Source: a virus
Taxonomy: Duplodnaviria > Caudoviricetes
Virus record (IMG/VR): IMGVR_UViG_3300033073_000492
Span: 1 to 64,000 of that record
Strand: one strand, 5' to 3'
Length of the DNA: 64,000 nucleotides
Shown here piece by piece: positions 17,773 through 18,169 of the stretch. The translations under genes were made by a program, and so were the position numbers. How positions within the stretch are numbered: position 1 is the first letter of the stretch; the number at the start of each line of letters is the position of its first letter. The notes beneath the pieces are model-generated. The model made no database searches and had not been told where the DNA came from. It saw only the letters and a list, made by a program, of their open reading frames with translations.

Positions 17773-18169
17773 TAGTTTTTCCTTTAATTGTTTTAAGACG
17801 GTCAAGAATAGATTCTGTTTTAGTAAACTCTTTCACAACCTTCTTGGGTTTTTGGTGCGCTTGATGGGAATCGAACCCACTACGTCCCGGTTTAGAATCG
17901 GTTGCTCCAGCCTTCGGAGCTTCAAGCGCAATTTCTTTCAAACGAGATACCTCGTGATGTTTTACAATTATAACATCTTTTACGATATCATCAATCTTAA
18001 TGGGCAAATCAAGATGAACTGTTATGAAGGGGCCATCAGTTGGATTGAGTTGGTTGTCATTACCAACTGTGCCGATAAAGGGTATGCCTTGATAGCGACC
18101 CAAGATTCTATCACCTATGTGATAAGTTGCTTTATAGGTTACTGTGTCAAAATATTCTTCATACGTCAT
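17729..18169 (-). CDS. hypothetical phage protein whose reading frame runs through the tRNA
   Basis: The N-terminal ~80 aa look like a small beta-rich domain (YHIGDRILGRYQGIPFIGTVGND). There is no stop before or within the tRNA; the C-terminal extent is uncertain. Confidence 0.55.
   Translation of the reverse strand: MTYEEYFDTVTYKATYHIGDRILGRYQGIPFIGTVGNDNQLNPTDGPFITVHLDLPIKIDDIVKDVIIVKHHEVSRLKEIALEAPKAGATDSKPGRSGFDSHQAHQKPKKVVKEFTKTESILDRLKTIKGKTNVIDTKKSRKRTSR
17853..17929 (-). tRNA. tRNA with CTA anticodon (putative amber suppressor; possibly degenerate)
   Basis: 77 nt. Acceptor GCGCTTG/CAAGCGC plus encoded ACCA; D stem GCTC/GAGC; T arm GTGGG-TTCGATT-CCCAT; loop TT-CTA-AA. Weak points: A8, C14, and an anticodon stem with only 3 Watson-Crick pairs. 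Confidence 0.6.

Follow-up and report, generated by a model that had tools for sequence, protein, structure and literature searches.

What does a tRNA with the anticodon CUA, which would read the amber codon UAG, do in a phage that otherwise uses the standard genetic code? Phage suppressor tRNAs are known mainly from phages with many recoded genes. Papers on recoded phages describe these tRNAs together with TAG depletion and "code-change modules" (bioRxiv 10.1101/2021.08.26.457843; PMC13037316), and a standard-code phage carrying a suppressor tRNA has been noted as a possible precursor of recoding (bioRxiv 10.1101/2021.08.26.457843). The stretch of DNA analysed here, 64,000 nucleotides that we call the window, covers the leading 64 kb of a virus contig of 74,990 bp and presents the same puzzle, since its first-pass annotation described a CUA tRNA in a phage without wholesale recoding. 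Below, the contig, the tRNA and its neighbours are compared with related phage loci, and the functions that could account for the tRNA are weighed against each other.

Results

Genome context and use of the amber codon

The contig encodes T4-type baseplate wedge and hub proteins together with gp55-, gp47- and gp46-like genes. Because its relatives that are rated 99–100% complete by CheckV measure 353–374 kb, the contig represents about one fifth of a T4-like jumbo-phage genome of ~350 kb. The phage probably comes from fresh water, and the phage collection searched for close cultured relatives contained no phage that is similar at the DNA level. A look for RNA sequencing runs that contain the stretch returned none. 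Two other ORFs of the window attracted attention in passing. One is a single 5223-aa ORF beside the baseplate genes (39676–55347, minus strand); the other encodes a 182-aa protein (18336–18884, minus strand) that carries a signal peptide, ends in ...SFSF and resembles a small outer-membrane β-barrel; no family match was found for it. The complete relatives carry 33–48 clustered sense tRNAs; those clusters that were inspected serve all 20 amino acids and include no suppressor tRNA. The tRNA with the anticodon CUA, hereafter tRNA(CUA), sits apart from the main tRNA arrays.

How does this phage use TAG? A greedy set of ORFs under translation table 11 comprises ~77 genes and fills 94% of the 75-kb contig, which bears out the initial view that no wholesale recoding has taken place, and the many genes with in-frame TAG that would signal code 15 recoding are absent from these 75 kb. 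The ORFs end in TAA 45 times, in TGA 29 times and in TAG three times. Two of the three TAG-ended ORFs are small and spurious, leaving a single real TAG-ended gene in about 75, namely that of the gp55-like late sigma factor (contig 66860–67753). Its TAG is followed in frame by the gp47-like gene with no stop between them (contig 66860–68827, plus strand, outside the window; L084:2860–4827), and this only TAG-joined pair of long ORFs in the contig consists of two separate genes. Readthrough at this position would fuse the gp55-like and gp47-like proteins; such a fusion was considered and put down to chance, since 73 of 81 relatives end the gene with TAA. By a cruder count, TAG accounts for 3.7% of stops in tRNA-bearing loci versus 7.8% in tRNA-less loci. 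It had also been stated that the ORFs contain no TAG. This holds in general and fails for one gene, here called gene X, which lies 1.2 kb downstream of tRNA(CUA) and whose codon 6 is an in-frame TAG.

Structure and detection of tRNA(CUA)

The tRNA proposed by the first-pass annotation is present on the minus strand (Table 1), where it scores 43.4 bits against Rfam RF00005 (gathering score 29, E 6.7e-06) in an alignment that sets the register of the anticodon loop as UUCUAAA. Each of the particulars described for it, namely U33, A37, the encoded CCA, A73, A8, C14, A27:G43 and A31:C39, was found, and with U33 and a purine at position 37 around CUA the loop is that expected of an amber suppressor. 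ARAGORN, which had been suggested as a check, gave a divided answer in that the tRNA was missed at default settings and called with the anticodon cta at -ps90 (90% threshold). The label of this call, 'tRNA-Pyl (cta)', is due to the anticodon alone. The hallmarks of tRNA-Pyl are a short D loop without G18G19, a 3-nt variable loop, a 6-bp anticodon stem and an atypical T loop. An identity as tRNA-Pyl was rejected on account of G18G19 in the D loop, a 5-nt variable loop, the T loop GTTCGATTC and an anticodon stem of 3–4 bp.

Table 1 Features of the tRNA(CUA) region, in window coordinates.
Feature	Coordinates	Strand	Evidence
tRNA(CUA), 77 nt, encoded CCA, A73; 5′ end at 17929, 3′ CCA ends at 17853	17853–17929	minus	Rfam, ARAGORN -ps90, MFE fold, covariation
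Anticodon CTA, loop UUCUAAA (U33, A37, A38)	17893–17895	minus	Sequence, Rfam alignment, invariant in 36 relatives
146-aa ORF reading in frame through the whole tRNA	17729–18169	minus	Same phase in 13 relatives, tail substitutions
Gene X: ATG at 16637, 4 sense codons, TAG, 187 codons	16056–16637	minus	Relatives, AlphaFold
In-frame amber, codon 6 of gene X, then ATT GAA	16620–16622	minus	TAG in 41 of 41 distinct starts
Shine-Dalgarno (SD) sequence AGGAG, 6 nt 5′ of the gene X ATG	16644–16648	minus	Sequence; SD also in relatives
Circularly permuted two-piece tmRNA, tag ANDESYALAA	19607–20113	minus	Rfam tmRNA_permuted, 129 bits

The MFE fold of the tRNA is a cloverleaf (z = −2.5) with an anticodon stem of 3 bp and a loop of 9 nt. 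Just three Watson-Crick pairs form in this stem, A27:G43 and A31:C39 being unpaired, and the copy in the window departs from the canonical U8–A14 (it has A8 and C14) as well as from a paired 31:39 (A31:C39). Because ARAGORN rejects this copy at its default threshold, because the anticodon stem is limited to 3 bp and because A8 and C14 break the usual tertiary pair, it may be less efficient than the copies of its relatives. A sigma-70-like promoter of its own, 38 nt upstream of the tRNA, was rejected as a candidate given that promoter-like matches were not above shuffled expectation; the −10 box of this candidate coincides with conserved VII codons.

Conservation of the tRNA(CUA) family

Related loci were gathered via the exact tRNA pattern, via neighbouring proteins and later via gene X, and the resulting set contains 36 distinct CUA tRNAs. 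The homologues that were to be looked for in related phages therefore exist, and all of them retain the anticodon CUA and an encoded CCA. A73 is found in 33 and a 5′ GCG in 34 of the 36; the TCTA core (U33 plus CUA) is invariant and the next two bases are nearly so. Rfam scores of relatives range from 42 to 57 bits. In an alignment of 14 sequences, 90.8% of cloverleaf cells are paired versus at most 41.8% in slid controls, 9 of the 21 base pairs vary on both sides, and the observed covariation score was equalled in none of 500 shuffles. Compensatory changes in the orthologues L001 and L003 affect the pairs 12:23, 29:41, 4:69 and 5:68. These alignments show that purifying selection acts on both the structure of the tRNA and its CUA anticodon. 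A covariance model built for the family (R1) proved unspecific, with hits to all tRNAs.

The comparison overturns the suggestion that the tRNA is a weak or decaying suppressor: with CUA in every relative and stems that covary, the non-pair at 31:39 turns out to be a family trait, the position being A:C, C:A, U:G or C:C and never Watson-Crick in the 36 relatives. A normal A31:U39 is present in the copy of the cultured Rhizobium phage RHph_I1_18. Peculiar to the window's copy is A27:G43, where close relatives have A:U, and position 8 is variable in the subclade whose tRNAs are nested in an ORF. The first-pass annotation had allowed that the copy might have decayed from an intact Arg(UCU) or other sense tRNA, and none of the relatives has such a tRNA at the locus. 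A search for a sense-tRNA parent among 200 phage tRNAs likewise gave no isoacceptor above background, with identities of ~0.66–0.68.

A tRNA nested in a 146-aa ORF

The ORF that runs through the tRNA is made up of a conserved ~80-aa N-domain, 26 codons that coincide with the tRNA, and a Lys-rich tail in which the motif ESxLDRLKxxKG occurs. About 60 related loci have homologues of the N-domain that are 79–83 aa long and tRNA-less. The ORF passes through the tRNA in the same phase in 13 distinct relatives, such that tRNA base 1 is codon position 1, and the nested tRNA is 77 or 74 nt long, a difference of whole codons. In the tail, codon positions 1, 2 and 3 have 35, 11 and 60 substitutions. The tail motif is kept past the tRNA, and the tail persists in L085 despite a decayed tRNA. 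Other arrangements exist: the tRNA of L087 is nested in a different frame, and the ORF of L056 terminates at a TAA one base short of the tRNA. Of the 36 tRNAs, 14 are nested and 22 free-standing, so nesting is not needed for the function of the tRNA. It is a feature of a subclade and probably an instance of real dual coding, and the relaxed positions 8 and 14 of the nested forms may reflect the double constraint. It is unusual in itself for a tRNA gene to double as part of the reading frame of a conserved ORF.

A neighbouring gene with an early in-frame amber codon

Which gene could such a tRNA serve? The start of gene X consists of an ATG, the leader codons ACA ACT AAT CAA and the TAG, after which ATT GAA and 185 further sense codons lead to a terminal TAA. 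The first ordinary start codon past the TAG lies 23 codons in and has no SD. Within the 75-kb contig, which includes structural genes, gene X is the sole case in which an SD and an ATG are followed by a leader, a TAG and a long ORF. As the 75 kb seen belong to a genome of ~350 kb, there may be further TAG-bearing genes elsewhere in it; near the tRNA of L056, L017, L018 and L087, no other TAG-gated gene was found.

Eleven tRNA-bearing relatives have the same build, with an SD, an ATG, 1–3 codons and a TAG followed by IEF or IEY, and a protein search yielded 43 further phage loci with gene X. These 43 loci, a few others and the window together provide 41 distinct gene X starts. In all of them an SD and an ATG precede 1–8 codons, a TAG (at codon 3–10) and an Ile codon, usually followed by GAA. 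The Ile codon is ATT in 36 starts, ATC in four and ATA in one, and the base after the TAG is A in all 41. An A following UAG is a context that favours suppression in E. coli. This interrupted form of the gene, the TAG state, is conserved with the same junction in homologues down to 48% protein identity.

The sequence behind the TAG has the marks of protein. The segment that separates the TAG from the first internal ATG includes the invariant residues C5, H11, N13, K14, H16 and D19, and in the AlphaFold model of gene X (mean pLDDT 86) it forms a confidently predicted β strand (pLDDT 91). A segment that is both conserved and predicted to be structured would have to be translated. Gene X has no significant match in Pfam, PHROG or NCBIfam, none from the ESM Atlas and no Foldseek match in the PDB; the VIA-align Z stays below 5, and the C-terminal domain bears merely a generic ACT/RRM-like resemblance.

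A search of 1.84 billion representative proteins returned 173 clusters of gene X homologues. Rarer, full-length homologues are free of TAG and begin M-I/V-E-x-A-C-K, with an ATG at the exact position of the TAG, as was verified on the DNA for two of them. The leader and the TAG are thus an addition to an otherwise complete gene, and this is what a gate would look like. In the phages Atu_ph07 and Phosso, the N-domain of gene X is fused without a TAG to the C-terminus of a larger protein. Database homologues in which a Q precedes IEF were rejected as evidence for Gln at the TAG, for they stem from gene calls made with TAG=Q. Many entries of the gene X family (P0104–P0222) carry this artefactual Q, and others are truncated to Met24 or to a GTG start. 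For annotation this means that gene callers using table 11 truncate gene X and that those using code 15 insert an artefactual Gln. As a separate observation, a T4-type late-promoter motif (TATAAATA) lies 5′ of the gene X SD in L005, L012, L002 and L175; in the window, the end of the upstream ORF instead extends into gene X.

Linkage and co-occurrence of the tRNA and gene X

Where the flanking sequence suffices, nearly all TAG-state loci have a CUA tRNA upstream, on the same strand and within 3 kb, often at a distance of 150 nt or less. Some of these spacings are as short as 29–40 nt. In L175 the tRNA lies ~35 nt 5′ of the gene X start codon, and in a variant from the same sample as the window the 29 nt between the tRNA CCA and the gene X TAG contain both the SD and ATG TCA ATG. 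The lineage of the window has genes for a rubrerythrin and a rubredoxin and two small genes inserted between the tRNA and gene X. The rubrerythrin-like gene and that of the 42-aa rubredoxin (17177–17772, minus strand) are absent from this slot in L003 and in the same-sample variants.

Presence and absence also go together. The complete genomes G006 and G008 have both tRNA(CUA) and gene X; searches for gene X in the complete genomes G005 and G007 were negative, and no CUA tRNA is present in the tRNA clusters of G005 or at the N-domain loci of G005 and G007. In L085 the tRNA has decayed to an unrecognizable remnant and the syntenic slot contains no gene X. The pairing extends to the cultured Rhizobium phage (RHph_I1_18, MN988519.1), where ATG AGT GAG TTC ATG TAG leads into a short homologue of gene X and an annotated tRNA-Pyl(cta) follows 10 nt past it. 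This homologue, at about 10911–11250 (L222:2478–2814), is unannotated in the GenBank record MN988519.1.

The dependence is one-sided, in that the TAG state nearly always occurs with the tRNA and the tRNA occurs also in its absence. In G001 (99% complete), which gives no match to gene X, the CUA tRNA is fully canonical, and L228 combines a TAG-free gene X with a CUA tRNA 1.1 kb upstream and a tmRNA. Gene X is therefore not the only reason for the tRNA to exist, and the tRNA probably has further roles. Two TAG-state loci, L187 and L218, show no CUA tRNA within the 4 kb examined.

Other genes of translation termination nearby

The permuted tmRNA of the window (Table 1) lies 1.7 kb from tRNA(CUA). 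A specific link between the two was rejected, as relatives have the tmRNA whether or not they carry the tRNA, and often at a great distance from it. Homologues of gene X have neighbours of a similar kind. An RF1-like gene with an in-frame TGA lies directly upstream of a TAG-free gene X homologue (L233:328–1014; also in L232), and the L233 phage may be TGA-recoded and carry its own RF1. A peptidyl-tRNA hydrolase gene is found two genes from the gene X homologue of phage Phosso. In L228 (2585–5675) the TAG-free gene X is clustered with a canonical CUA tRNA and a permuted tmRNA (tag ANDNFEMDTRLAA); behind this cluster lies a tRNA-like sequence to which ARAGORN assigns an anticodon of two bases.

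Discussion

We consider it likely that the tRNA is a functional phage amber suppressor from an old family, conserved in T4-like jumbo phages with the standard code, and that its best-supported job is to decode the UAG of gene X. In such a mechanism, tRNA(CUA) would decode the single in-frame UAG that lies 2–9 codons past the start of gene X, and the body of the protein would be made only if the tRNA were present, matured, charged and able to outcompete release factor 1, so that the tRNA and the UAG would together form a one-codon translational gate. Readthrough of specific phage genes was among the roles initially proposed, and the comparative part of this proposal has gained support from a conserved TAG-bearing gene that is linked to the tRNA and co-occurs with it. 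We infer from these comparisons that UAG would be suppressed, that suppression would be the purpose of the tRNA and that it would regulate gene X.

An alternative hypothesis is that the tRNA is a general suppressor, either reading through UAG-ended host genes as part of host takeover or marking a first step towards TAG recoding, and that the UAG in gene X is tolerated. Such a role would accommodate the tRNAs that lack a TAG-state gene X (G001, L228) and the gene X homologues beside a tmRNA, an RF1-like gene or, in Phosso, a peptidyl-tRNA hydrolase, and the scarcity of TAG stops in the contig would fit the route to recoding described previously (bioRxiv 10.1101/2021.08.26.457843). However, a UAG that is merely tolerated should often mutate to a sense codon, and it is kept in 41 of 41 TAG-state starts; moreover, the 75 kb, structural genes included, offer no other gene with an in-frame TAG. 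We regard a general suppressor as unlikely, and it and the gating of gene X are not mutually exclusive.

Could the TAG simply be a stop? It would then end a mini-ORF of 2–9 codons, a leader peptide; ribosomes would reinitiate at the Ile codon next to the TAG to translate the body of gene X, and the tRNA would be unrelated. TAG-free homologues do start at exactly the TAG position, and ATT can act as a weak start codon, for example in infC, so the commonest codon after the TAG could serve in this way. However, five of the 41 starts have ATC or ATA at this position, and the linkage of gene X with a CUA tRNA, their co-occurrence and their joint loss would be left unexplained, which makes a leader peptide quite improbable.

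A further question is whether the tRNA works at all. It could be a decaying pseudogene, or a tRNA-like structure with a cis effect on the mRNA of the 146-aa ORF, perhaps a processing site from which non-stop mRNA for the tmRNA would arise. The anticodon loop, the CCA, the T loop and all four stems are conserved with covariation in 36 relatives, 22 of which are free-standing, and this speaks against both versions, as does the occurrence of the tmRNA regardless of the tRNA and often far from it; gene X in the window also still has its TAG. Against this stand A8 and C14, two mismatches in the anticodon stem, a score below the default threshold of ARAGORN, and the position of the tRNA inside an ORF with a translated-looking tail 1.7 kb from a permuted tmRNA, and we judge a non-working tRNA to be very improbable. 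Barely credible is a tRNA-Arg(UCU) created by a one-base shift in register, UUCUAA holding both UCU and CUA, for although ARAGORN calls Arg(tct) for the homologous tRNA close 5′ of gene X in the distant relatives L212, L215 and L216, where the shifted register gains one base pair, the shift yields no Watson-Crick pairs in the anticodon stem of the window's copy, and relatives with the loop CUCUAAA, including those closed by U31:G39, present only CUA with U at 33.

Returning to the gating of gene X by tRNA(CUA), a bolder extension can be put forward, which we hold to be doubtful. The tRNA, the UAG-gated gene X and the permuted tmRNA, with the RF1-like gene in relatives, would form a stop-codon toolkit in which gene X acts on UAG decoding or termination, for instance by antagonizing RF1 or by servicing the suppressor tRNA. 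Its early UAG would then be a feedback sensor of the ratio of suppression to termination, comparable to that of prfB, and in the subclade of the window the 77 nt would be truly dual-coding, at once a mature tRNA and 26 codons translated into protein, with maturation and translation in competition for a single transcript.

How does this locus compare with known systems? As in the code 15 phages (TAG = Gln; crAss-like, Lak and other phages), there is a phage CUA tRNA, a host that presumably uses the standard code and a depletion of TAG stops, and genes of translation termination lie nearby in some relatives. In contrast, code 15 phages have dozens of genes with in-frame TAG, among them structural and lysis genes, and their coding density rises under code 15, whereas the 75 kb here, baseplate genes included, reach a coding share of 94% under code 11 and hold a TAG in just one gene, at a fixed place shortly past its start. 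A parallel in logic is prfB, the gene of RF2, which autoregulates through an early in-frame UGA; there, too, an early stop ties output to the balance between termination and an alternative decoding event. The event in prfB is a +1 frameshift with no dedicated tRNA, whereas a cognate suppressor tRNA would decode the stop in gene X. Pyrrolysine and selenocysteine systems likewise pair a dedicated stop-reading tRNA with in-frame stops in specific genes, although the present tRNA is unlike tRNA-Pyl in having G18G19, a variable loop of 5 nt and GTTCGA as its T loop, and neither a dedicated synthetase nor a recoding element was seen. Its anticodon loop resembles those of the E. coli amber suppressors supE, supF and Su7 (UUCUAAA or CUCUAAA, with U33 and A37–A38), and loops of this kind belong to efficient laboratory suppressors in E. 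coli. Those suppressors are mutant alleles of sense tRNAs, whereas the phage family has no detectable sense-tRNA parent and a 31:39 position that is non-Watson-Crick in 36 relatives.

A full-text literature search returned no account of standard-code phages in which a phage tRNA is paired with one amber codon at a fixed position. The present comparison reveals a standard-code lineage that stably holds one suppressor tRNA and one UAG, in at least 40 distinct phages and in a cultured Rhizobium phage. If suppression indeed takes place, the pair would be a natural, minimal and genetically encoded translational gate and a source of a natural combination of tRNA and codon context for amber suppression, and it may represent a stable alternative to the proposed state of a precursor of recoding.
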